A DNA stretch of 64,000 bases from Pseudomonadota bacterium (GCA_043809315.1 JAZDDX010000016.1:64001-128000), one strand, 5' to 3'; shown: positions 6,958 through 54,994, counted from the first letter of the stretch. Notes: generated by a model from the sequence alone, not told the origin. Made by a program: numbers and translations.

Positions 6958-7043
6958 CCTGACAGTCCACCTGACAGTTCCGGTGTCAGGATCGCGCGAC
7001 CTGACACCATTTTCCGCACGAAACGATTGGCACGGGGGGTGCA
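6958..7043 (+). promoter_or_regulatory. Sigma54 promoter with upstream CCTGACA repeats
   Basis: TGGCACGGGGGGTGCA at 7028-7043; CCTGACA at 6958, 6970 and 7000; perfect inverted repeat GGTGTCAGG-N9-CCTGACACC at 6982-7008. Confidence 0.65.
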
Positions 7044-18479: not shown

Positions 18480-18495
18480 AGCAATGGCTGTGCCA
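18480..18495 (-). promoter_or_regulatory. Sigma54 promoter of the lipoprotein gene
   Basis: Minus strand TGGCAC-AGCCA-TTGCT, a full consensus match; degenerate IHF-like site at 18512-18524. Confidence 0.8.
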
Positions 18496-24311: not shown

Positions 24312-24335
24312 ACCCTCGAAACCTGAAAAATTAAT

Positions 24336-24726
24336 GCGAGCAGGTCTGTAAGCCGAGTCCTGTCCCCGGCTTGCGCCGGGTGACGATCATTCCTCTAGGC
24401 GGCCGGTTACCCGGCCGCTCCAGCAGCCTACCCGGGGACGTAACGAGAAAGGGCTTGCTCTAGTCCCCCTATTTGGCCTTGCTCCGGAAGGGGTTTACCG
24501 CACGGCCGCTCTCACGGCTCTCGTGGGGGAGCTCTTACCTCCCCGTTTCACCCTTGCCTGATCCCTATGAATCTCCGGAGAAATTCAGAGGGCCATCGGC
24601 GGTCTGCTCTCTGTTGCACTTTCCGACGCTCGCGCGCCCTGGACGTTATCCAGCTTCCTGCCCTTTGGGAGCTCGGACTTTCCTCCCCGGGGTTTGCACC
24701 CCGCGGCGACCGCCCGACCTGCTCGC
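24336..24726 (-). ncRNA. rnpB: RNase P RNA, bacterial type A
   Basis: Minus strand GAGGAAAGTCCGAGC near the 5' end and CTCGGCTTA near the 3' end; terminal helix GCGAGCAGGTC/GACCTGCTCGC. Confidence 0.95.
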
Positions 24727-26946: not shown

Positions 26947-27019
26947 TGGGCCCTCCTGGATTCGAACCAGGGACCTGCCGGTTATGAGCCGGTGGCTCTT
27001 ACCGCTGAGCTAAGGGCCC
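26947..27019 (-). tRNA. tRNA with CAT anticodon, most likely tRNA-Ile2 (CCA not fully encoded)
   Basis: GGGCCCTTAGCTCAG...CTCATAA...GGTTCGAATCC...GGGCCCA cloverleaf; lies directly downstream of rpoD. Confidence 0.9.
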
Positions 27020-36862: not shown

Positions 36863-38308
36863 TTAAAAGAGTCGCTTCCGTTTGGAAGACGACAGGATTC
36901 CAAGCATTTCGCGGTATTTCGCGACGGTCCGTCGCGCGATATCGATGTTGTTCTGTCGAAGTAGTTCCACCACCTCCTGGTCGCTGTATGGCTTCCGGCC
37001 ATCCTCCCCCGTGATGATCTCCCGGATCCGCTCCTTGACCGCTTCCGACGCCACGTCCGCCCCCTCGACCCTCCGGATGCTCGAGTTGAAAAAGAATTTC
37101 AACTCAAAGATCCCCTGCGGGGTATGGACGTATTTGTTCGACGTGACCCGGCTGACTGTCGACTCGTGCATCCCGATGTCCTCAGCGACGTCCCGCAAGA
37201 CCATGGGATGGAGATACGTGATCCCACGGTCGAGAAAGTCCTTCTGCATCTTCACGATCGACTCGGTCACTTTGTAGATCGTCCTCTGCCGCTGATGGAT
37301 CGAACGAATCAGCCAGACCGCGGAGCGGAGCCGGTCGTTGATGTACTCCTTCGTAAGTCCCGTCGATTTGTTTCCACGCAGAACGCTTTGGTAGAGGTTC
37401 GAGATCCGGAGTTTCGGGAGTCCGTCCTCGTTCTGAACGATCATGTACTCGTCTTTGACCTTATAGACGTAAATGTCGGGGGTGATGTACTGGGCGCTCT
37501 CATCGTAGAACTGGCGCCCCGGTTTCGGTTCCAGCGCGGAGACCGCTTTGACTGCAACGATCACGGTCTCCATATCCGAATCGGTCGCTTTGGCGATCGC
37601 CGGATAGTTCTTCCGTTCCAGATCGCTCAAATGATCTTGGATGATCCTTCGCACGAGAGAGTCATTGGGGAGCTGCTTCGTCTGGATCAGGAGACATTCC
37701 CGCAGGTCGCGGGCGCCGACGCCGATCGGGTCGAGTTCCTGGATCCGCGCCAGAACATGCTCCACCTCGTCTTCGGTACAACGAAGCTTAGAGGCCAGCT
37801 CCTCCGCCGTCGCCCGGAGATACCCGTCCTCATCGAGGTTCCCGAGGATCACCTCGGCGACTTTCTGTTCCCGTTCGTCGAAGCGGGAGAGCTTGACCTG
37901 CCAGAGGAGGTGTTCGGTCAGCGTGTCGGAACGGGTGAGAGATGATTCGAAGCTCGGAAGGTCCGGGTCAACGTCACGGTAGGTGTTGTCCCCGACCGCG
38001 CGGTACGGCTGGCTGTTGAGGTAGTTCTCCCAATTGATGTCGTCCGTCCCCTCCCCTTTGGCCGGATTCACCTCCTGAGTCTTCTCCTCTTTCGCCTTGG
38101 CCTTCTTCTGCTCGTCTTCCTCCTCCTTCTCGACCTCCTCGCTTCCATCCAGCCCTTCCTCGAGAACCGGGTTCTCGAGCATCTCCGTCATGCAGTGCTC
38201 GGCCAATTCGAGACGATTCAGTTGCAGCAGCTTGATCGCTTGCTGCAACTGCGGCGTCATTACGAGTTGTTGGCTTAGGCGGAGACTCTGTTTGAGTTCA
38301 AGAGCCAT
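36863..38308 (-). CDS. rpoN: RNA polymerase sigma54 factor
   Basis: MTPQLQQAIKLLQL, HESTVSR and ARRTVAKYRE (RpoN box). Confidence 0.97.
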   Translation of the reverse strand: MALELKQSLRLSQQLVMTPQLQQAIKLLQLNRLELAEHCMTEMLENPVLEEGLDGSEEVEKEEEDEQKKAKAKEEKTQEVNPAKGEGTDDINWENYLNSQPYRAVGDNTYRDVDPDLPSFESSLTRSDTLTEHLLWQVKLSRFDEREQKVAEVILGNLDEDGYLRATAEELASKLRCTEDEVEHVLARIQELDPIGVGARDLRECLLIQTKQLPNDSLVRRIIQDHLSDLERKNYPAIAKATDSDMETVIVAVKAVSALEPKPGRQFYDESAQYITPDIYVYKVKDEYMIVQNEDGLPKLRISNLYQSVLRGNKSTGLTKEYINDRLRSAVWLIRSIHQRQRTIYKVTESIVKMQKDFLDRGITYLHPMVLRDVAEDIGMHESTVSRVTSNKYVHTPQGIFELKFFFNSSIRRVEGADVASEAVKERIREIITGEDGRKPYSDQEVVELLRQNNIDIARRTVAKYREMLGILSSSKRKRLF

Positions 38309-47058: not shown

Positions 47059-48723
47059 ATGATCGAGCTTTCCCTCTTCAAAATGGACGAGGAAGTCATG
47101 AAGTACTTCCTCAACAAAGAGACCACCACGATCGGGCGCGCCAGCACCAACGACATCTGCCTGCCCGACCCCGCGATCTCCCGGACCCACTTCGTGATCC
47201 TGCGCGCGGAAGAACGGTACGTCGCCACCGACCAGTCGACGAACGGGACGTTCGTGAACGAACAACGGATCTCCAGCCACGAACTCAAGATCAACGACGT
47301 GATCCGCGTTGGGACCTGGACGATCCGGTTCGGATCGGCCAAGTCCGAGGAGGCGGAAGCTACCGACGTGGGGTTCCGCGATCCGACCCGCGTCCTCTCC
47401 TACCGCCCGGACCGGAGCGAGTTGGTCTGCGAGCGGGGGATGATCGAACTCCAGACCACCCCCAAGAAGACGATCGCGATCACGAGATCGATGACGACGA
47501 TCGGAAAAGCGAAATCGAACCACATCGTCCTCGGCGATGACTTCGCTTCGAACTACCATTGCCGGATCGACAACCGGAAGGGGACCTATTTCCTGAAAGA
47601 TCTCCAGAGCACGAACGGAACCAAATTGAACGGACAGAAGATCATCGAAGCCGCGCTGGCGTTCAATTCGGTGATCGAGATCGGGCGAACGCGCCTCCGC
47701 TTCTTCTCCGCCGAAGAGGTCCAAACACTGGAACCGGCCCGGGAGGCTGATTTCGAAGGGATGCATTCCGATCATCCGAGAATGCGCGAGATCTTCGCCC
47801 TGATCCGGCGGATCGCCCCGTCGGACGCCACGGCTTTGATCCAGGGGGAGTCCGGAACCGGGAAAGAACTTGTAGCGCGGGCGATCCACAACGCAAGCGG
47901 CCGAGACAAGAGAAAGTTCGTCGCCATCAACTGCAGCGCCATCTCGAAAGATCTGATCGAGAGCGAGCTGTTCGGGCACGAGAAGGGGGCGTTCACCTCG
48001 GCCCACCAGCAACGCCACGGGGTCTTCGAACAGGCGAACGGCGGTACCCTCCTACTGGACGAGATCGGCGAGATGCCGCTCGATCTCCAGCCGAAACTGC
48101 TGCGCACACTCGAAACCGGAGAGATCAAGCGGGTCGGCGGCACGACGCTGATCCATGTCGATGTCCGGATCGTGGCCGCAACCAACAAAGACCTCTCCGC
48201 GGAGGTCCGGAAGGGGCGGTTCCGGGAGGATCTCTTCTTCCGCCTGTTCGTGGTACCGATCCAGGTGCCGCCGCTTCGCGAGCGGCCACGGGACATCCCT
48301 CTCCTGGTCGAGTCATTCCTCGAACAGGAGTTGGCGAAGCAAAAAGGGAAGCAGGTCCGGAAGATCGACCCGCAGGCGATGGATCTCCTGATGGATTACA
48401 CCTGGCCGGGGAACGTGCGCGAACTCAAGAACGTGATCAGCCGCGCGGTCCTCGACTGCCGCACCGAAACGATCGGTGCGGGGGACCTGCAGTTCGCCCC
48501 GGCGGGAACGCGGGAACGGACCGCGTACGAATACGACGGCACGCAGAACGAGCCTCAGACCTTCACGAAGACGCTCCGGGACGTCGAGAAGGATCGGATT
48601 CTCCAGGAACTCGAACGACAGAACTGGAACAAAAAAGCGACCGCCCGGACCTTAGGGATCGCGAAGTCGACCCTACACGAGAAGCTCAAGCGCTACGGGA
48701 TCACGGACAAAGAAGAAGACTAG
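47059..48723 (+). CDS. FHA-FHA-AAA+-HTH sigma54 enhancer-binding protein
   Basis: Two FHA domains (IGR...SR.H...STNGT; IGK...S..H...STNGT), GESGTGKE, GAFTSA, WPGNVREL and C-terminal HTH. Confidence 0.92.
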   Translation: MIELSLFKMDEEVMKYFLNKETTTIGRASTNDICLPDPAISRTHFVILRAEERYVATDQSTNGTFVNEQRISSHELKINDVIRVGTWTIRFGSAKSEEAEATDVGFRDPTRVLSYRPDRSELVCERGMIELQTTPKKTIAITRSMTTIGKAKSNHIVLGDDFASNYHCRIDNRKGTYFLKDLQSTNGTKLNGQKIIEAALAFNSVIEIGRTRLRFFSAEEVQTLEPAREADFEGMHSDHPRMREIFALIRRIAPSDATALIQGESGTGKELVARAIHNASGRDKRKFVAINCSAISKDLIESELFGHEKGAFTSAHQQRHGVFEQANGGTLLLDEIGEMPLDLQPKLLRTLETGEIKRVGGTTLIHVDVRIVAATNKDLSAEVRKGRFREDLFFRLFVVPIQVPPLRERPRDIPLLVESFLEQELAKQKGKQVRKIDPQAMDLLMDYTWPGNVRELKNVISRAVLDCRTETIGAGDLQFAPAGTRERTAYEYDGTQNEPQTFTKTLRDVEKDRILQELERQNWNKKATARTLGIAKSTLHEKLKRYGITDKEED

Positions 48724-48728
48724 CTTCG

Positions 48729-49013
48729 CTATTTGTTCAACGATTGTTTGAGCGCCGCCGAGGGACGGAACAGGACACTCTTCGACGCCGCGAAGACGGT
48801 CTCCTGACCGGTCTGCGGGTTCCGCCCTTTCCGCTCTTTTCTCTTGCGGACGAGGAACGTGCCGAATCCGGGATAGGAGAAACGTCGGCCACGGCGGATC
48901 GCCAGCGCGAGGTTGTCGAACATGCTTTCCACCAGGTCGGAGGCGGCGGCCTTCGAAAGATTCCTGCGTTTGCAGCTCACCACCAGTTTCTCGACCAAAT
49001 CCTGTTTCGTCAT
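48729..49013 (-). CDS. HU/IHF-family DNA-binding protein
   Basis: MTKQDL, PGFGTF and GRNPQTG motifs. Confidence 0.9.
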   Translation of the reverse strand: MTKQDLVEKLVVSCKRRNLSKAAASDLVESMFDNLALAIRRGRRFSYPGFGTFLVRKRKERKGRNPQTGQETVFAASKSVLFRPSAALKQSLNK

Positions 49014-49094
49014 GACCCTCGCGCCGTATATCGGAGGGTCGCCGGGGGTGTCAAGGCGTTGGACCGGGACTCGGCCTGGTGTATGATACCGGCG

Positions 49095-49613
49095 ATGCGA
49101 ATCGACCGCCGCTCCATCGCCCTGGTTCTTTCCCTTTCCCTCCTCCCCGCCTGCGCCTCCAAGAACTTCCGCGAACCGGAAGCGAGCGGAGATACGGAAA
49201 CCTCCGTCGCCCGTACGTTCCAGCGCAGCTACACCGACGTCTGGAACGCCGCCATCGGCGCCTTGGGGGAGAAGAAATACGCGATCGCCACCTCGAAGCG
49301 TGAAGGGGGCGTTCTCATCACCGACTGGATTTCCGGGAAATCAGACCGACTCTTCTCCGGGTATGGCGACACGCGGATTCCCTATTCGGTCCGCTTCCGG
49401 ATGACGCTCAAACTGACCCCGACCCGGGACGGCGTCCGCGTCGCGGTCCGGAACGAGGAGCAGTACCTTTCGGACGTGATTACGGCGGGAACCGACTTCA
49501 CCGGATCGCTCTACCAGTGGATCGGCACACAGAGTTCGGGCGCGAAGGAGAGTTCGCTCCTCGCGAGCCTGGCGGAATCGATTTCAGCGTCCAGCCCGAG
49601 GGAAAAGAAATAA
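49095..49613 (+). CDS. Lipoprotein (BamC-like fold possible)
   Basis: LPAC lipobox; VWNAA...L...GVLITDW pattern. Confidence 0.7.
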   Translation: MRIDRRSIALVLSLSLLPACASKNFREPEASGDTETSVARTFQRSYTDVWNAAIGALGEKKYAIATSKREGGVLITDWISGKSDRLFSGYGDTRIPYSVRFRMTLKLTPTRDGVRVAVRNEEQYLSDVITAGTDFTGSLYQWIGTQSSGAKESSLLASLAESISASSPREKK

Positions 49614-51097
49614 CGGCCCCGGCGACGGAAAACCCGCGGTTCGGGAAGTACTCGCTCCTCGCGAAGCTCGGCTCCGGCGGGATGGCTGAAGTCTTCAAGG
49701 CCTCCCTCATCAACAAGCCCGACTACATCATCGCGATCAAACGGATTCTCCCCCAGTTCTCCCGGCACCGGGAGCTGGTGAACATGCTGGTGGCGGAAGC
49801 GGGGCTCACGACCGGCCTCGCTCACCCCAACATCGTCCCGATTCTCGATTTCGGAGCGGTCGGCGACATCTACTTCATCGCCATGGAGTACATCCACGGC
49901 AAGGACTTGAAGTCGATCATCATCCGCCTCAAAACGAGAAAGGCGGAGTTCCCGATCCCGCTCGCGATCCACGTGATGACCCAAGTCCTGCGGGGCCTCG
50001 ATTACGCCCATCACAAGTGCGACAAGTACGGAAAGGCGCTGCAACTCGTTCACCGCGACATCTCGCCGCAAAACGTGATGATCTCGTTCACCGGAACGAT
50101 CAAGATCCTCGACTTCGGGATCGCGAAGGCGGGCACCCGCTCCCGTGACACCGAGAGCGGGATCCTGAAGGGGAAGTTCTCCTACATGTCCCCCGAGCAG
50201 GCGTACGGGGAGAACGTCGACCCGCGCACCGACGTCTTCGCGGCCGGGATCGTCCTCTGGGAGCTCCTGACCCTCAAGTACTGCTTCGACGGGGAAACCG
50301 ATCTCGATTTACTCCGGAACGTGCGGGCCGCGCGCGTACGCAATCCATCCTCGGTCAACAAGAAGGTGCCGCCCGAGCTTTCGGAGATCGTCTTGAAGGC
50401 GCTCGAGCGGAAGCCGAGAAAACGGTATTCCAGCGCCGGCGAATTCGCCGACGCTCTCGAGACCTATCAGAAGGATCGCTTCGGAGTTCTGACCGAGGCC
50501 GACACCGCGGCCTTTCTTCGGAGCCTGTACGACGTATCCCTTCATGAGGTCGAGACCCCCGCAGTCGCTTACCGCGTTCCCGATCCTCCTTCGGGAGAGC
50601 AGGCGATCTCGGCCTCCTTCCGGGCCCCATGGGTCCGTAGGGCCCCGGAGTGGCTCGCACAGATCCCGAAATCGGTTTTCGTCATTCTGGCCGTCATCTT
50701 GTTGTTCCGGATCGTTTCGCCGGGGAAGATCTTTCTCCGGTACGACCGGACCGTGGTGAACATGGCCGCCCGCTTCCACGCCTGGCGCCGATCGAACACC
50801 GCCGCCCCTCCCGAAGCCCCCCCCTCGTCGGGGGCTTCCGGTAGCCAGCCTTTCTACACGGTCCAGATCGCCCCCGGCGCCCAGCGGATCCTGGACGACC
50901 TCCCGTTCGAAACGTTCGAACGGCTGCGGGATTTCATCACCGACCTCTCGGCCGACCCGAGGCCGCGCGGAGTACGGGCGATTCCGGAACGCCCCTCCTC
51001 GTTCGGCGTACCGATTTCAGGATTCCGGATTGTTTATCAGATGAACGATCTTCCGCGGACCATCACGGTCGAGCAGGTTCAAAAAACGGCCCCGTGA
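49517..51097 (+). CDS. Hanks-type Ser/Thr protein kinase with a hydrophobic segment and C-terminal RelE/ParE-like domain (start uncertain: GTG 49517 or ATA 49610)
   Basis: GSGGMAEV, AIK, HRDISPQN, DFG, GKFSYMSPEQ and DVFAAG motifs; the last ~80 aa align by eye with the RelE at 40507. Confidence 0.9.
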   Translation: MDRHTEFGREGEFAPREPGGIDFSVQPEGKEITAPATENPRFGKYSLLAKLGSGGMAEVFKASLINKPDYIIAIKRILPQFSRHRELVNMLVAEAGLTTGLAHPNIVPILDFGAVGDIYFIAMEYIHGKDLKSIIIRLKTRKAEFPIPLAIHVMTQVLRGLDYAHHKCDKYGKALQLVHRDISPQNVMISFTGTIKILDFGIAKAGTRSRDTESGILKGKFSYMSPEQAYGENVDPRTDVFAAGIVLWELLTLKYCFDGETDLDLLRNVRAARVRNPSSVNKKVPPELSEIVLKALERKPRKRYSSAGEFADALETYQKDRFGVLTEADTAAFLRSLYDVSLHEVETPAVAYRVPDPPSGEQAISASFRAPWVRRAPEWLAQIPKSVFVILAVILLFRIVSPGKIFLRYDRTVVNMAARFHAWRRSNTAAPPEAPPSSGASGSQPFYTVQIAPGAQRILDDLPFETFERLRDFITDLSADPRPRGVRAIPERPSSFGVPISGFRIVYQMNDLPRTITVEQVQKTAP

Positions 51098-51100
51098 AGA

Positions 51101-51952
51101 TCAGTGGAGGGGGTGCGCCTCTCCCCATTTCGACCAGTGCTCGACACATTTCTCGCTCTGCGCGTCCGGACCGGCGAGAGCCGCGTCCGGTGAGAGCTTG
51201 GTGAGCGCACCGCAAGCGCGGAGTCGTATTTCGAGTTCACTTTCACGAAGAACGGCCAACAACGCGGAAACCGCCTTCTTGTCGCCGATCGAGCCAAGCG
51301 CATCGACGATCCGGCCGCGGATCCAGAGGCTCCGCCCCCGGTAGAAGTTTCGAGGGGCACCGAGCTCTTTGACGAGATCCGGGATCGAATCCCCGTCTTT
51401 CAACGCTTCGAGGGAATCAACTGCCTTGCATCGGACGACCATCGCCCGGTCGGAAAGAGCCGGCCGGAGCAGTGCGGCCACCGAGGAGTCCCCCCGCGAC
51501 GTCAGCGCCTGAATCGCCGCCATTCGGATCAGGAATAGAGAGTCGGTCATCCCTTTCTCGAGTGCTTCCCGCGCCGTTTTGGTCCCGAGGCGGCCGAGCG
51601 CGATCCCGACGATCCATCTCGCCTGCCAGGAAGCGGAGGCGTCCTGGAACAGGGAGACGAGCGGGGGGACGGCGGGGGTCCCAAGATCGACGATCTCGGA
51701 CAGCTGTTCCGGGTAGTCACTTCCGGACGGAACGGTGGCGAGGATCGCGCGGATCTTTCCCGCGAGGTCGACTGCCGGAGCCGGTTTTTCCGTGCGCTCC
51801 GGTTCCGCGGTACTCGGAACCGCCGTCGGCGTCCCGGCATCGATCATCGTCTCGGGATCGCCGAAGCGGAGCGGCGCCTCTTCGACCGCGAGCGCCGAAA
51901 AAGAAACGAGGAGGGCCACTTGAAAAACCGCTCTCTTCCCTCTAAGGTCCAT
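51101..51952 (-). CDS. HEAT/PBS-lyase repeat protein, probably exported (start uncertain)
   Basis: Repeated R..A..ALG.LG helical units; hydrophobic N-terminal segment. Confidence 0.75.
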   Translation of the reverse strand: MDLRGKRAVFQVALLVSFSALAVEEAPLRFGDPETMIDAGTPTAVPSTAEPERTEKPAPAVDLAGKIRAILATVPSGSDYPEQLSEIVDLGTPAVPPLVSLFQDASASWQARWIVGIALGRLGTKTAREALEKGMTDSLFLIRMAAIQALTSRGDSSVAALLRPALSDRAMVVRCKAVDSLEALKDGDSIPDLVKELGAPRNFYRGRSLWIRGRIVDALGSIGDKKAVSALLAVLRESELEIRLRACGALTKLSPDAALAGPDAQSEKCVEHWSKWGEAHPLH

Positions 51953-51956
51953 CGCC

Positions 51957-52901
51957 ATGATCAAGCTCCTTCTGGCACGGCCGCGCGGGTTCTGCGCCGG
52001 CGTCGTGCGCGCCATCGACACCGTCGAGCTGGCGCTCAAACATTTCGGGACGCCATTGTACGTCCGGAAGGAGATCGTGCACAACCAGGCTGTGGTGCAG
52101 GAGTTTCGCAAACGGGGGGTGCAGTTCATCGACGAGCTGAACGAGGCTCCCAAGGGGAGCCGCGTGATCTTCAGCGCCCACGGGGTATCTCCCGCGGTCC
52201 GGGAGGAGGCGGAGCTGCGCAACCTGAACGTCATCGACGCCACCTGCCCTCTCGTGACCAAAGTCCATGCGGAGGTTCATCGCTTCCGCAAGAACGGGTA
52301 CTCCATCATCCTGGTCGGACACGAGGAGCACGAAGAGGTCCAAGGAACGATGGGGGAAGCCCCCGAGGCGATTCGAGTGGTCGGTTCCGTCGAGGATGTC
52401 GAAAAGGTGACGGTTCCCAATCCGTCGAGAGTGGTCGCACTGACACAGACCACGCTCTCGGTCGACGAGACCCGCGACATCATCGACGCCCTCCGGAAGA
52501 AGTTCCCGAAGCTCGAATGTCCGGCCAAAGAGGATATCTGTTATGCGACCCAGAACCGGCAGGACGCAGTCAAGATCCTGGTCGGGAAAGGGATCGATCT
52601 TCTCCTCGTCGTCGGATCGAAAAACAGCTCGAACTCGAAGCGACTCTGCGAGGTGGCGCGCGCCTTGGGGGTCGAAGCGCACCTGATCGACCGTGCGTCC
52701 GAGATCGAAAAGAAGTGGCTCGCCGGAAAAACGAAACTGGGTTTGACGGCGGGGGCCTCGGCCCCGGAATACCTGGTTGCCGATGTCGTTCGATACCTGG
52801 AATCGGCCGGCGCGGTGACGGAAGAGCTGGATCTGGTCGAGGAGCACGTGAGCTTCGCGCTTCCGGTCGAGATGAGCGAGATGCTCAACATCCCGCGATA
52901 G
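51957..52901 (+). CDS. ispH: 4-hydroxy-3-methylbut-2-enyl diphosphate reductase
   Basis: PRGFCAGV, DATCPLV, DICYATQNRQ and SSNS motifs. Confidence 0.96.
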   Translation: MIKLLLARPRGFCAGVVRAIDTVELALKHFGTPLYVRKEIVHNQAVVQEFRKRGVQFIDELNEAPKGSRVIFSAHGVSPAVREEAELRNLNVIDATCPLVTKVHAEVHRFRKNGYSIILVGHEEHEEVQGTMGEAPEAIRVVGSVEDVEKVTVPNPSRVVALTQTTLSVDETRDIIDALRKKFPKLECPAKEDICYATQNRQDAVKILVGKGIDLLLVVGSKNSSNSKRLCEVARALGVEAHLIDRASEIEKKWLAGKTKLGLTAGASAPEYLVADVVRYLESAGAVTEELDLVEEHVSFALPVEMSEMLNIPR

Positions 52902-52916
52902 ATTTCGAAACAGCAC

Positions 52917-52953
52917 AAAAGAAAAGAGGCCTCTTCAAGAAGGCCCCTTTTCT
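52917..52953. terminator. Bidirectional Rho-independent terminator
   Basis: AGAAAAGAGGCCT-N8-AGGCCCCTTTTCT hairpin with T-rich tails on both strands. Confidence 0.8.
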
Positions 52954-53081
52954 CTCAGCTTCTGCCTAGCAATAATCTTTAGCTTCAGCCCAGGACTGCC
53001 CTTCCCCCCGGAGGCAGTTTCTGCTGGGGGCTCCTGAAAGTCTCTCTCCCGTCCAAGAGCCCCCTGCTTCCCCGTTATGCG
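52917..53081 (-). ncRNA. Candidate sigma54-dependent small RNA, ~165 nt, three hairpins
   Basis: Bounded by a sigma54 promoter and a terminator; hairpins at 53026-53064, 52995-53018 and 52920-52953; no ATG-initiated ORF on this strand. Confidence 0.65.
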
Positions 53082-53091
53082 CGATTTAAAC

Positions 53092-53236
53092 AGCAGGGTT
53101 CGTGCCAAATATTGCGAAAATCAGATCCGAATCATATCAAGCACTTTCGACGCAGGTTCCCAAACCCTGGTGATCTTTAGACACCAAAATAGGAAAAAAC
53201 TGGAGTCAAAATGGCTTGTTCGAGGTCAAAATGACC
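53092..53236 (-). promoter_or_regulatory. Sigma54 promoter, IHF site and tandem enhancer-like palindromes
   Basis: TGGCACGAACCCTGCT (minus, 53092-53107); TATCAAGCACTTT at 53135-53147; AGTCAAAATGGCT at 53204 and GGTCAAAATGACC at 53224. Confidence 0.75.
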
Positions 53237-53309
53237 CCACTTTTCGGAGGACACAATCCGCATTTCTCCCTACTGGACAGGAGGACCCAGAATGTTACAT
53301 TGCGTCATC

Positions 53310-53990
53310 GTGCCCCACAAAGCCATTCGTCTCGCGGCCATCTTCGGATGCATCTTGCTTTTGACGACCTCTTCCTTCGCCCAACGAAAGGGGAAGAAGT
53401 CGTCGGACAAGCCTTTGGAATTTTCCTCCTGCGATCTCGTCGTCGATCGGTCGGTATACGCGGAATGGGGAGTCAATGCGGTTCATGGCGGCGCCTTCTA
53501 CAGCGACACGAAACTTCTCAGTTACGCCAAAGTGGACAAACCGGGTGGAGAATTTCAGATCGTGCCCCGCATGCCGACCTTGGAAGAAGTTGAGATCGGC
53601 ACCATCGTTCTCGGCTCCACATCCCCTCTGGCTTCTAGGAACCCGAAGCAGGGTTGCTGGACAAAGGTCACCGGGAAAGCTCCGCTCAACATCTCGGACA
53701 TTTCGGTTGTCCACCTTCAATACGCTTTGCCGAAGGTCCCCGCTCTTCTCGAGCTCTACACGACCCCCAAACAACTCTTCTTCGTCGAGCACGGAGGAAC
53801 GTTTTCGTTCGAGTCGGCAGAGAACCTTCAATCCACGAGAGATCGGCTGTTCGGTCCGAAGGAATTGTTGGAGCTTAAGAAGACAGACCAGGTGTCCGCC
53901 GCGCCCGCCCGCCTCTGGGCCTTGTATACCGAGATCGGGAACTATTACGTCAGCGCCTCGGGCAACGGATTCGTTCTTGTGAAAGACTGA
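53310..53990 (+). CDS. Secreted protein with a degenerate Hint domain (start GTG 53310 or ATG 53292)
   Basis: Signal peptide ending SFA; colinear with the neighbouring Hint protein (AF.SDTK, VLGST, CWT.VT, TE.GNY) but lacking Cys1, the TxxH His and terminal HN. Confidence 0.7.
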   Translation: MPHKAIRLAAIFGCILLLTTSSFAQRKGKKSSDKPLEFSSCDLVVDRSVYAEWGVNAVHGGAFYSDTKLLSYAKVDKPGGEFQIVPRMPTLEEVEIGTIVLGSTSPLASRNPKQGCWTKVTGKAPLNISDISVVHLQYALPKVPALLELYTTPKQLFFVEHGGTFSFESAENLQSTRDRLFGPKELLELKKTDQVSAAPARLWALYTEIGNYYVSASGNGFVLVKD

Positions 53991-54124
53991 TTGCTTCGAC
54001 CGTCGGGCCCTTGATCCGGCCGAGCGAACCGCGATCGTCGCCAGCGTCCGCGCGGCAACGGGCCTCCCCTCTATTGGTTAAAAGCTGGACAACCGGACCG
54101 AGAATACTACGATGCGTCATATCT

Positions 54125-54994
54125 ATGACGTCCAAACGACGCTGTCTCGTCCTCTTCGCCCTTTTCTTCCTTTCCTCGGTTCCGACCGTCTCGGCCGAAT
54201 CGTGGAAAGCGGTGACCCAAAAGATCCAACACGCGGGGATCCAGGCAATTGAGGAGCAGTACGCGTCGATGCCGCCGTTCTACAAGTACTTCGATTACCC
54301 CGTCTGTAAGGAGATCCTCGACCGCCGCGCCGCCGAGGATGCCGACCGCCGTGCCTACGGCGCCGAGTACGGCCTGAAGCCGCTCAAGAGGATCTCGGGA
54401 GGAAAAGCGGAAGAGGAGTTCGAGATCCACCATCGGGTCAAGAAGGAGTGCTCTCCGGCGGGCGACGTTCCTTGTTTCGCGAGCAACACGAAAATCGTGA
54501 AGCTCGACCGCACGCCGACCGGTGACCGCGTGATCGAAACCGAGATCGCCGCGCTTCGAAAAGGGGACTACGTCCTCGGTTCCACCGCCGATCAAGCTCG
54601 CGAGGAGCGGTACCAGGTCCGCGCCTGCTGGACGCAGGTCACCGAAGCGCCGTACGAAGGGGAAATGAAGGAGGGGGATTCGTACTTGACGATCATGTAT
54701 CGAAGAGAGGGAGAACTCCTGGCCGACAAACAGACGTTGGACGTCACGACCCACCATCGCGTGCGGGCCACCTATTGGGGGGGACGGATGCTCTGGATCG
54801 ACGCCATCCGCTTGGTCCGCGGCTACCGCATCTACGGAGCCGACGGGACGTTCGTTCTCGAGGCCAAGCCGAAATTACACAAGGTCGGGGGAGAGAAACA
54901 GACCGTCACGAACCTCCAGACCGAAACCGGGAACTACTTCATCGGGCCGAAGGGGAGCGCCATCCTCGCCCACAATGAAGGAGTCTGCACGTAG
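54125..54994 (+). CDS. Secreted Hint/intein-like (BIL/PT-HINT-like) domain protein
   Basis: Signal peptide ending VSA; CFASNT (54473), L..GD.V, TTHH, W..A..L..G, V.NL, NYF and AHN (ends 54976), then only EGVCT. Confidence 0.82.
   Translation: MTSKRRCLVLFALFFLSSVPTVSAESWKAVTQKIQHAGIQAIEEQYASMPPFYKYFDYPVCKEILDRRAAEDADRRAYGAEYGLKPLKRISGGKAEEEFEIHHRVKKECSPAGDVPCFASNTKIVKLDRTPTGDRVIETEIAALRKGDYVLGSTADQAREERYQVRACWTQVTEAPYEGEMKEGDSYLTIMYRREGELLADKQTLDVTTHHRVRATYWGGRMLWIDAIRLVRGYRIYGADGTFVLEAKPKLHKVGGEKQTVTNLQTETGNYFIGPKGSAILAHNEGVCT

Follow-up and report, generated by a model that had tools for sequence, protein, structure and literature searches.

A putative sigma-54-dependent non-coding RNA gene beside ispH in four genera of an uncultured bacterial family

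The gap downstream of ispH in the DNA analysed here probably contains a real sigma-54-dependent gene for a non-coding RNA with a regulatory role, judging by the sequence of the locus and of its counterparts in related genomes. A sigma-54-type promoter, a candidate enhancer, a 5' motif and a hairpin are all kept at this locus in four genera, which supports the proposal of a sigma-54-dependent structured regulatory RNA made in a preliminary description of the same DNA. The RNA would be new, but by analogy it joins a known type of circuit, the one represented by Qrr, GlmY, CrcZ and Pxr. Throughout, the window means the whole stretch of 64,000 nucleotides that was analysed; it belongs to genome G000, a 96%-complete MAG of 2.42 Mb.

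The ispH-adjacent locus and its predicted transcript

The elements of the locus and the sigma-54 gene of the window are listed below, with positions counted along the window; the transcript, its fold and the enhancer are predictions.

36872-37348, minus strand: rpoN (sigma-54), stretch encoding the DNA-binding domain within a 506-aa frame (PF04552, E 4e-63)
51957-52901, plus strand: ispH (LytB; PF02401, E 1e-96), the convergent neighbour and the marker of the locus in the genomes compared
52916-52957, minus strand: intrinsic terminator of 18 pairs with a U tail, with terminator-like sites on both strands
53081-52917, minus strand: predicted primary transcript of 165-166 nt, its presumed start 12 nt downstream of the C of the -12 box and its end at the U tail
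52995-53018, minus strand: hairpin 2 of the predicted fold, ACUGCC...GGCAGU around a GGGGGG run
53026-53064, minus strand: hairpin 1 of the predicted fold, a 13-bp GC-rich stem GGGGGCUCUUGGA / UUUCAGGAGCCCCC with the loop CGGGAGAGAGAC
53066-53073, minus strand: 5' motif GGGGAAGC, predicted to be mostly single-stranded, identical in G000, G001, G002 and G004 and 18-21 nt after the promoter
53107-53092, minus strand: sigma-54 (-24/-12) promoter TGGCACGAACCCTGCT, with one mismatch to TGGCACG-N4-TTGCW
53169-53185, minus strand: candidate enhancer (UAS) GGTGTCTAAAGATCACC, a 17-bp palindrome GGTG-N9-CACC, 61 nt upstream of the -24 box
from 53292, plus strand: next ORF after the gap, with a signal-peptide-like N-terminus and without a Pfam or NCBIfam match

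The sigma-54 promoter consensus is TGGCACG-N4-TTGCW, and the site at 53107-53092 departs from it at a single position. It lies within a gap of 390 nt between ispH and the next plus-strand ORF, in agreement with the preliminary description of a near-consensus minus-strand promoter directed into a gene-free gap. Sites with at most one mismatch number three in the 64-kb window against 0.16 expected (three were reached in none of 100 shuffles) and 61 in the whole 2.42-Mb genome. CTGCW stands at the -12 position in seven of the 61, that is, in six TGGCACG-N4-CTGCW sites besides the promoter of the RNA, and most of these six are followed, 15-60 nt further on, by a Shine-Dalgarno sequence with its start codon; a C at the first -12 position thus appears to be normal for this organism. 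Further near-consensus promoter matches occur in the window at 7028-7043 (plus) and 18480-18495 (minus), and the genome carries 13 strong sigma-54 activator genes. On the far side of the promoter, two plus-strand ORFs of 232 aa (the signal-peptide-like one) and 327 aa occupy 53292-54994, between the promoter of the RNA and a Cys/Met gene; they have no match in Pfam or NCBIfam and no tblastn match in the seven relative loci compared. The Cys/Met gene is located directly upstream of the RNA in G001 and G002.

The region 53085-52910 (176 nt) folds with a predicted energy of -78.9 kcal/mol and a z-score of -3.3, a value equalled by none of 200 shuffles. All three structures previously described, i.e. 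the 13-bp hairpin, the ACUGCC/GGCAGU hairpin and the U-tailed terminator, are present in the computed fold, and the transcript, described earlier as about 165 nt long and devoid of an ATG ORF, is indeed predicted at 165-166 nt with no ATG. The terminator at 52916-52957 is, by its sequence, bidirectional and would also close ispH. Terminal hairpins with U runs equivalent to it are present in G002 and G004, and a strong terminal hairpin with a U run ends each of the four RNAs described below, that of G001 lying inside the end of the ispH frame. All four are rich in purines (58-61%) and contain repeated GA motifs; several GGA triplets occur in the G000 RNA. The sequence of hairpin 2 is not kept in the relatives, and each has a run of at least five G in the equivalent part. 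A G-quadruplex reading of these G runs was rejected, as their spacing is not conserved.

Conservation among relatives

A scan against Rfam 15 at gathering scores returned no match in the region; in the window it found only RNase P and tRNA, both elsewhere (a class A RNase P RNA at 24333-24725, minus, 271 bits, and a tRNA at 26947-27019, minus). At E <=10 the best match of the region was to 6C on the plus strand, with 28.3 bits against a gathering score of 47 (E 0.12), and the CsrC-type model reached 12.5 bits against a gathering score of 279. The preliminary description had claimed no known family pending such a scan, and on the evidence of the sequence the RNA matches no described RNA family. 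Searching the literature on sigma-54 and small RNAs returned nothing on this lineage, a word search being a tool that cannot detect an RNA by its sequence.

The family of the window comprises five genera (G000-G004) in our collection, which holds 17 species-level genomes of the phylum and 15 of the order; ispH was found in 14 of the latter 15. Searching 61 genomes (G000 included) with the DNA of the locus yielded, besides G000's own copy, one chance match of 28 nt. Since DNA searches thus revealed no close relative, relatives were sought by synteny. This approach uncovered the locus in four of the five genera of the family (G000, G001, G002 and G004), each with a sigma-54-type promoter past ispH on the opposite strand, 117-221 nt beyond the ispH stop in G001, G002 and G004 (117 nt in G001). 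In all four the promoter is followed 18-21 nt on by the invariant GGGGAAGC and then by a GC-rich hairpin of 11-13 bp with a GAGAGA-type loop. TGGCAC and TGC of the promoter are invariant, and the six bases between them differ. The loop core reads GAGAGA or GAGAAA in the four genera; the loops of G001 and G004 contain no GGA. The conserved part of the RNAs is the 5' 55 nt, and past the hairpin their sequences diverge.

A covariance model of the RNA core built from two sequences and devoid of the promoter (R1) found one significant copy each in G000, G001, G002 and G004 (E 5e-7 to 5e-18). The 13 remaining genomes of the phylum gave no significant match, and weak R1 hits in G003 and G002 were dismissed, as they read as coding sequence and have no promoter linked to them. 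The model rebuilt from the four sequences, again without the promoter (R2), scored these members at 69-75 bits, and the next best score among 151 genomes (the other 147) was 23.4 bits; in none of the eight best weak R2 hits is there a sigma-54-like site within 80 nt upstream. Relatives with the promoter, GGGGAAGC and the hairpin downstream of ispH, sought at the suggestion of the preliminary description, are therefore found in three of the four other genera of the family.

The preliminary description had also proposed a covariation test, and here hairpin 1 behaves as a conserved structure. With 11 modelled pairs in four sequences, all 44 of 44 cells hold standard pairs, these counts coming from four sequences of one family in an alignment that was fitted to the model and so leans towards the structure. 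Five pairs never vary and four of the 11 change on both sides in a compensatory manner (e.g. C-G, U-A and A-U at one pair). The covariation score of 0.576, compared with a shuffle mean of 0.272, was reached by none of 500 shuffles, and registers slid along the alignment all scored far lower. Given the model-leaning alignment and the small number of sequences, we regard this covariation as supportive rather than as proof. Five cells of hairpin 1 are G-U or U-G pairs. Read from the plus strand these would be C-A mismatches, which assigns the structure to the promoter strand.

The remaining genus of the family, G003, has no RNA at this place: ispH and the gene for the Cys/Met PLP enzyme are about 40 nt apart there on one intact contig. 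A possible relative comes from outside the family, namely from G005, a 74%-complete genome of another family. In that genome TGGCATAGCTTGTGCT occupies the same place, together with a pair of enhancer-like sites and a putative GA-rich RNA that ends in a terminator. This candidate RNA, scored by neither R1 nor R2, contains GAGGGAGCGAGAGAG and GUGAGAGAGAGG as well as a short hairpin whose loop reads AGAGA. Its presence suggests that the RNA locus may be older than the family and that an exposed GAGAGA may be its lasting feature. The RNA gene is flanked by ispH on one side and by the gene for the Cys/Met PLP enzyme or for a secreted protein on the other, and the block from hutU to the gene for an M16 peptidase is conserved across the order.

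Pattern scans of larger collections brought no further members. The promoter followed by GGGGAAGC was found in four stretches from unrelated taxa in a collection of genome contigs (the best with 18 bits to R1), a scan that missed the known members in G001, G002 and G004, which the collection may not contain. Among metagenome contigs the same pattern occurs in 38 stretches, at none of whose 38 sites does R1 fit; the sole R1 match at E <=1 in these stretches lies elsewhere in L037 (14.9 bits). On inspection, most of the metagenome matches look like mRNA leaders, those of flagellar rod genes among them. One sigma-54 promoter and one GGGGAAGC-containing leader are common to about 18 of the 38 loci (L037, L047, L049 and others), and behind this leader lies a gene for a flagellar-rod-like product that starts with MENAQLISLS. 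This appears to be a conserved leader of other bacteria that is unrelated to the ispH-adjacent RNA.

A candidate enhancer and a candidate activator

Upstream of the promoter the four genomes have in common a 17-bp palindrome, GGTGTC-NN-AA-NNN-CACC. With up to two mismatches allowed, it is found 61 nt (G000), 62 nt (G002), 59 nt (G004) and 64 nt (G001) upstream of the -24 box, and it is the fixed distance that counts here, because the four regions served both to derive the motif and to measure it, which makes the comparison partly circular. At the same stringency the site turns up anywhere in 33 of 2000 shuffled 300-nt regions. A second exact site is present in G001 at 96 nt, the enhancer-like site of G005 is 51 nt upstream of the promoter, and the 2.42-Mb genome of G000 matches the motif exactly at one place only, the site upstream of the RNA promoter. 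The combination of a half-site and a promoter at the fixed distance occurs once each in G000, G002 and G004, always at the RNA locus. In G001 it is encountered at the RNA locus in reverse orientation and once in the forward orientation, before a lipoprotein-like gene, and in G003 there is none. With the pattern nearly confined to the RNA locus, the RNA seems to be the main, or even the sole, target of the activator that uses the site. Elsewhere in the genome, at G000:C38:33526-33720, an enhancer-like site with two mismatches stands 65 nt upstream of the promoter TGGCACGCGTCCTGCT, which is followed by a strong Shine-Dalgarno sequence and an ORF of about 21 codons; this could be a sigma-54-driven gene for a micro-protein.

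On the comparative evidence taken together, it is likely that sigma-54 RNA polymerase would initiate at 53107-53092 when activated by an enhancer-binding protein seated some 60 nt upstream of the -24 box, on the GGTG-N9-CACC palindrome, and that transcription would end at the bidirectional terminator shared with ispH.

As to the identity of the activator, we collected the sigma-54 activator genes from the five genomes of the family and obtained reciprocal best hits for 12 of the 13 genes of G000. The thirteenth (FHA-type, near ispH), which lacks the motif used to pick frames, was followed by synteny instead and occurs in every one of the five. Of the 12, ten are matched by a reciprocal orthologue in each of the four relatives. 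The G000:C9 gene has them in G002 and G003 only, a distribution that does not match that of the RNA, and it was set aside. The gene at G000:C17:105455-106915 has orthologues in G001, G002 and G004, with identities of 66-71% in this comparison; its best match in G003, at 40% identity, is a paralogue that pairs reciprocally with another gene of G000. A direct search with the protein agrees, giving 67-73% in G001, G002 and G004 and 43% in G003. The encoded protein consists of REC, sigma-54 AAA and HTH_8 domains, and no kinase gene is adjacent. In G000, G001, G002 and G004 its gene immediately precedes ftsY and a Na/Pi-PhoU gene. G003 carries an intact ftsY-Na/Pi pair on a contig of 280 kb, and the 1500 nt upstream of the pair contain no gene of this kind.

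The RNA and the G000:C17-type regulator are thus both missing from G003, at two unlinked and otherwise intact loci, and this co-loss, which concerns a single genome that is 95% complete, makes the REC-AAA-HTH protein the probable activator. We therefore lean, if not strongly, towards this REC-AAA-HTH_8 response regulator as the protein that controls the RNA. Proteins 56% and 62% identical to it are encoded by two genomes outside the family, G011 and G015, in which there was neither a match to the RNA model nor the enhancer-plus-promoter pattern; in G005 an RNA-like locus is present, yet the best match to the regulator there reaches only 44% (this genome being 74% complete). Against NCBIfam the regulator falls below every equivalog cut-off, the best being AtoC with 450 bits against 714. 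A second, weaker candidate by the same co-loss is the G000:C24 activator (G000:C24:112684), which is 59% identical over 65% of the query to its counterpart in G003; the activator frame of this counterpart, G003:C4:58239-58736, is interrupted by a TAA stop, and the gene may be a pseudogene in G003, which lacks the RNA.

The cluster upstream of ispH offers another activator. At 47059-51097 (plus) the window encodes a sigma-54 activator that carries a pair of FHA domains; a lipoprotein-like gene and then a gene for a Ser/Thr kinase come after it, and at 51101-52261 (minus) a HEAT-repeat gene occupies the other strand. The four genes retain the same order in the four relatives of the family; G008 and G014, which belong to a different family of the same taxonomic order, have the activator, lipoprotein and HEAT genes as well, with no kinase match listed. 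The cluster looks like a kinase-to-FHA-activator signalling module. As the cognate regulator of the RNA it was rejected, for it is present in all five genomes of the family, including the RNA-less G003, and in G008 and G014, and so gives no co-occurrence signal. On the strand opposite ispH, the HEAT-repeat ORF extends over the first 300 nt of that gene (51957-52261), and the first 100 residues of the ORF are conserved in the relatives by tblastn. This conservation is most likely a shadow of that of ispH, and the true start of the HEAT gene is probably near 51950, which, if true, leaves almost no intergenic space for two divergent promoters.

Should the co-loss have singled out the right gene, and we put this slightly above even, the orphan NtrC-family response regulator encoded at G000:C17:105455-106915 would convert a phosphorylation signal into a level of the RNA, with a logic resembling that of LuxO-Qrr, GlrR-GlmY and CbrB-CrcZ.

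Possible modes of action and comparison with known RNAs

What the RNA would do once made is a matter for more tentative proposals. The preliminary description suggested that its GGA/GGGAG-rich segments might sequester a CsrA-type protein or pair with C/U-rich targets. The first of these ideas fails, as CsrA (PF02599) was found in none of the five family genomes by a search that gave matches in control genomes; moreover, the conserved loop is GAGAGA, and two of the four loops lack GGA. Hfq was likewise found in none of the five, the control genomes again giving matches. The second idea may hold, and the scans gave nothing above shuffled controls: duplex folding of the RNA against 2388 5' regions, delimited by crude gene calls, produced no match above shuffled RNAs, and complements of the motifs are not enriched near start codons (e.g. 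GCTTCCCC occurs 15 times against 12.6 expected).

Three modes of action are considered here, in descending order of favour: pairing that is independent of Hfq, titration of a protein, and an effect in cis on ispH. The first, which we put forward tentatively as the leading one, holds that the RNA may act in trans without Hfq, the exposed purine-rich GGGGAAGC and the GAGAGA loop pairing with pyrimidine-rich sites in mRNAs. A broader picture, more speculative still, is that of a one-regulator, one-RNA circuit in an uncultured lineage with neither Hfq nor CsrA. The orphan NtrC-family response regulator would there have the RNA as its sole sigma-54 target, and the RNA might work by an undescribed chaperone-independent mode through GGGGAAGC and GAGAGA, possibly tying a signal to isoprenoid (ispH) or sulfur amino-acid metabolism, whose genes always adjoin the RNA.

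RNAs that act as decoys of proteins are exemplified by GlmY, which binds RapZ, and CrcZ, which binds Hfq/Crc. By analogy, the RNA studied here might titrate a protein other than CsrA or Hfq through GGGGAAGC and the GAGAGA-loop hairpin, a reading that we consider unlikely. An invariant 8-mer beside a structurally conserved hairpin with a semi-conserved loop does resemble a protein site, the RNAs are 58-61% purine with repeated GA motifs, and no pairing target stands out in the scans. However, neither CsrA nor Hfq was found in the five family genomes and there is no candidate protein, and the conserved unit is present once per RNA, whereas known sponges carry many sites.

Convergent sigma-54 transcription might also lower the expression of ispH in cis, through collision of polymerases or through pairing of read-through antisense RNA. 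We rate this somewhat below the decoy, although several features of the locus are in keeping with it: the RNA gene stays at the 3' end of ispH in the four genomes and G005 while the gene on its other side changes, the terminator is bidirectional, and in G001, where the promoter is 117 nt from the ispH stop, the predicted RNA would enter the 3' end of ispH. On the other hand, it is the 5' 55 nt of the RNA that are conserved, with compensatory changes, and not the part facing ispH; strong terminators would stop the RNA before ispH in G000, G002 and G004; and synteny alone could account for the linkage, given that the entire hutU-M16 peptidase block is kept throughout the order. Hfq-independent pairing in trans stays our preferred, if tentative, reading.

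It is far less probable that the transcript is a small mRNA for the 23-codon TTG frame, the sole ORF of at least eight codons in G000, or for another micro-protein. Some ORF of at least eight codons can be found in each of the four RNAs (23, 16, 34-43 and 9 codons, with the starts TTG, ATG, GTG or TTG, and TTG), and three of the four read the CCCC arm in the same frame. Still, their lengths, start codons and positions differ, the starts being scattered over the hairpin, and no alignment of the peptides extends past a single proline, which the CCCC arm forces; the G000 RNA has no ATG at all, and the substitutions are compensatory across the stem, not third-position. Unlike ORFs that share only a forced proline make the coding alternative weak, and with no ORF conserved among the four RNAs, the codon-pattern conservation of the TTG frame that the preliminary description had named as speaking against a non-coding RNA is not seen. 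The least credible alternative is that the promoter is a chance match and the structures are those of the plus strand, formed by the terminator region or 3' end of ispH or by a 6C-like RNA with C-rich loops, for which one may cite the shared terminator and the weak 6C match (28.3 bits against 47, E 0.12) but which is at odds with the position of promoter and candidate enhancer being kept in four genera, with the five G-U/U-G cells that pair on the minus strand only, and with a 6C score far under the threshold.

We know of almost no small RNAs outside cultured model phyla. The RNA proposed here can be defined from sequence together with a promoter class, an enhancer site and a candidate activator, and so would constitute a complete circuit that is open to testing. 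With Qrr, GlmY/Z, CrcZ and Pxr counted as the first four, it would be the fifth independent example of control by sigma-54 activators via an RNA, and one set in a lineage in which neither Hfq nor CsrA was found, with a reach limited to four genera of one uncultured family.

The Qrr RNAs of Vibrio are Hfq-dependent and exist in several copies. The likeness proposed to the LuxO-Qrr system lies in an NtrC-family response regulator and sigma-54 driving a small RNA as the main or only output. The ispH-adjacent RNA differs in occurring as one copy per genome, in belonging to a family in which Hfq was found in none of five genomes, and in giving no Rfam match to Qrr, and its candidate regulator scores 343 bits against a LuxO cut-off of 800. 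GlmY/GlmZ under GlrR (QseF) and CrcZ under CbrB are likewise RNAs driven by sigma-54 and a response regulator, some of them being protein decoys. They have no Rfam match to the RNA in question either, which lacks the A-rich repeats of the CrcZ type, and the candidate regulator attains 359 bits against a GlrR cut-off of 763. With the CsrB/RsmZ sponges the RNA shares its richness in purines and, in G000, several GGA triplets; it is unlike them in having one conserved hairpin, two of four loops without GGA, no CsrA found in the five family genomes and only 12.5 bits against the CsrC-type threshold of 279.

The closest setting, by analogy, is that of Pxr of Myxococcus xanthus and related myxobacteria. 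Pxr is described as 108 nt long, with three stem-loops and, by prediction, both a sigma-54 promoter and an enhancer site; the genomes that carry it have no Hfq homologue (PMC5568312). The resemblance extends to an RNA of about 100-170 nt with multiple stem-loops and a predicted sigma-54 start and enhancer site, to a GC-rich lineage in which no Hfq was detected, and to confinement to a single clade at a fixed genomic position (PMC5568312). The Rfam scan at E <=10 listed no match to Pxr. Pxr is encoded directly downstream of the response regulator gene nla19 (PMC5568312), whereas the RNA described here adjoins ispH and its candidate regulator is encoded on another contig.
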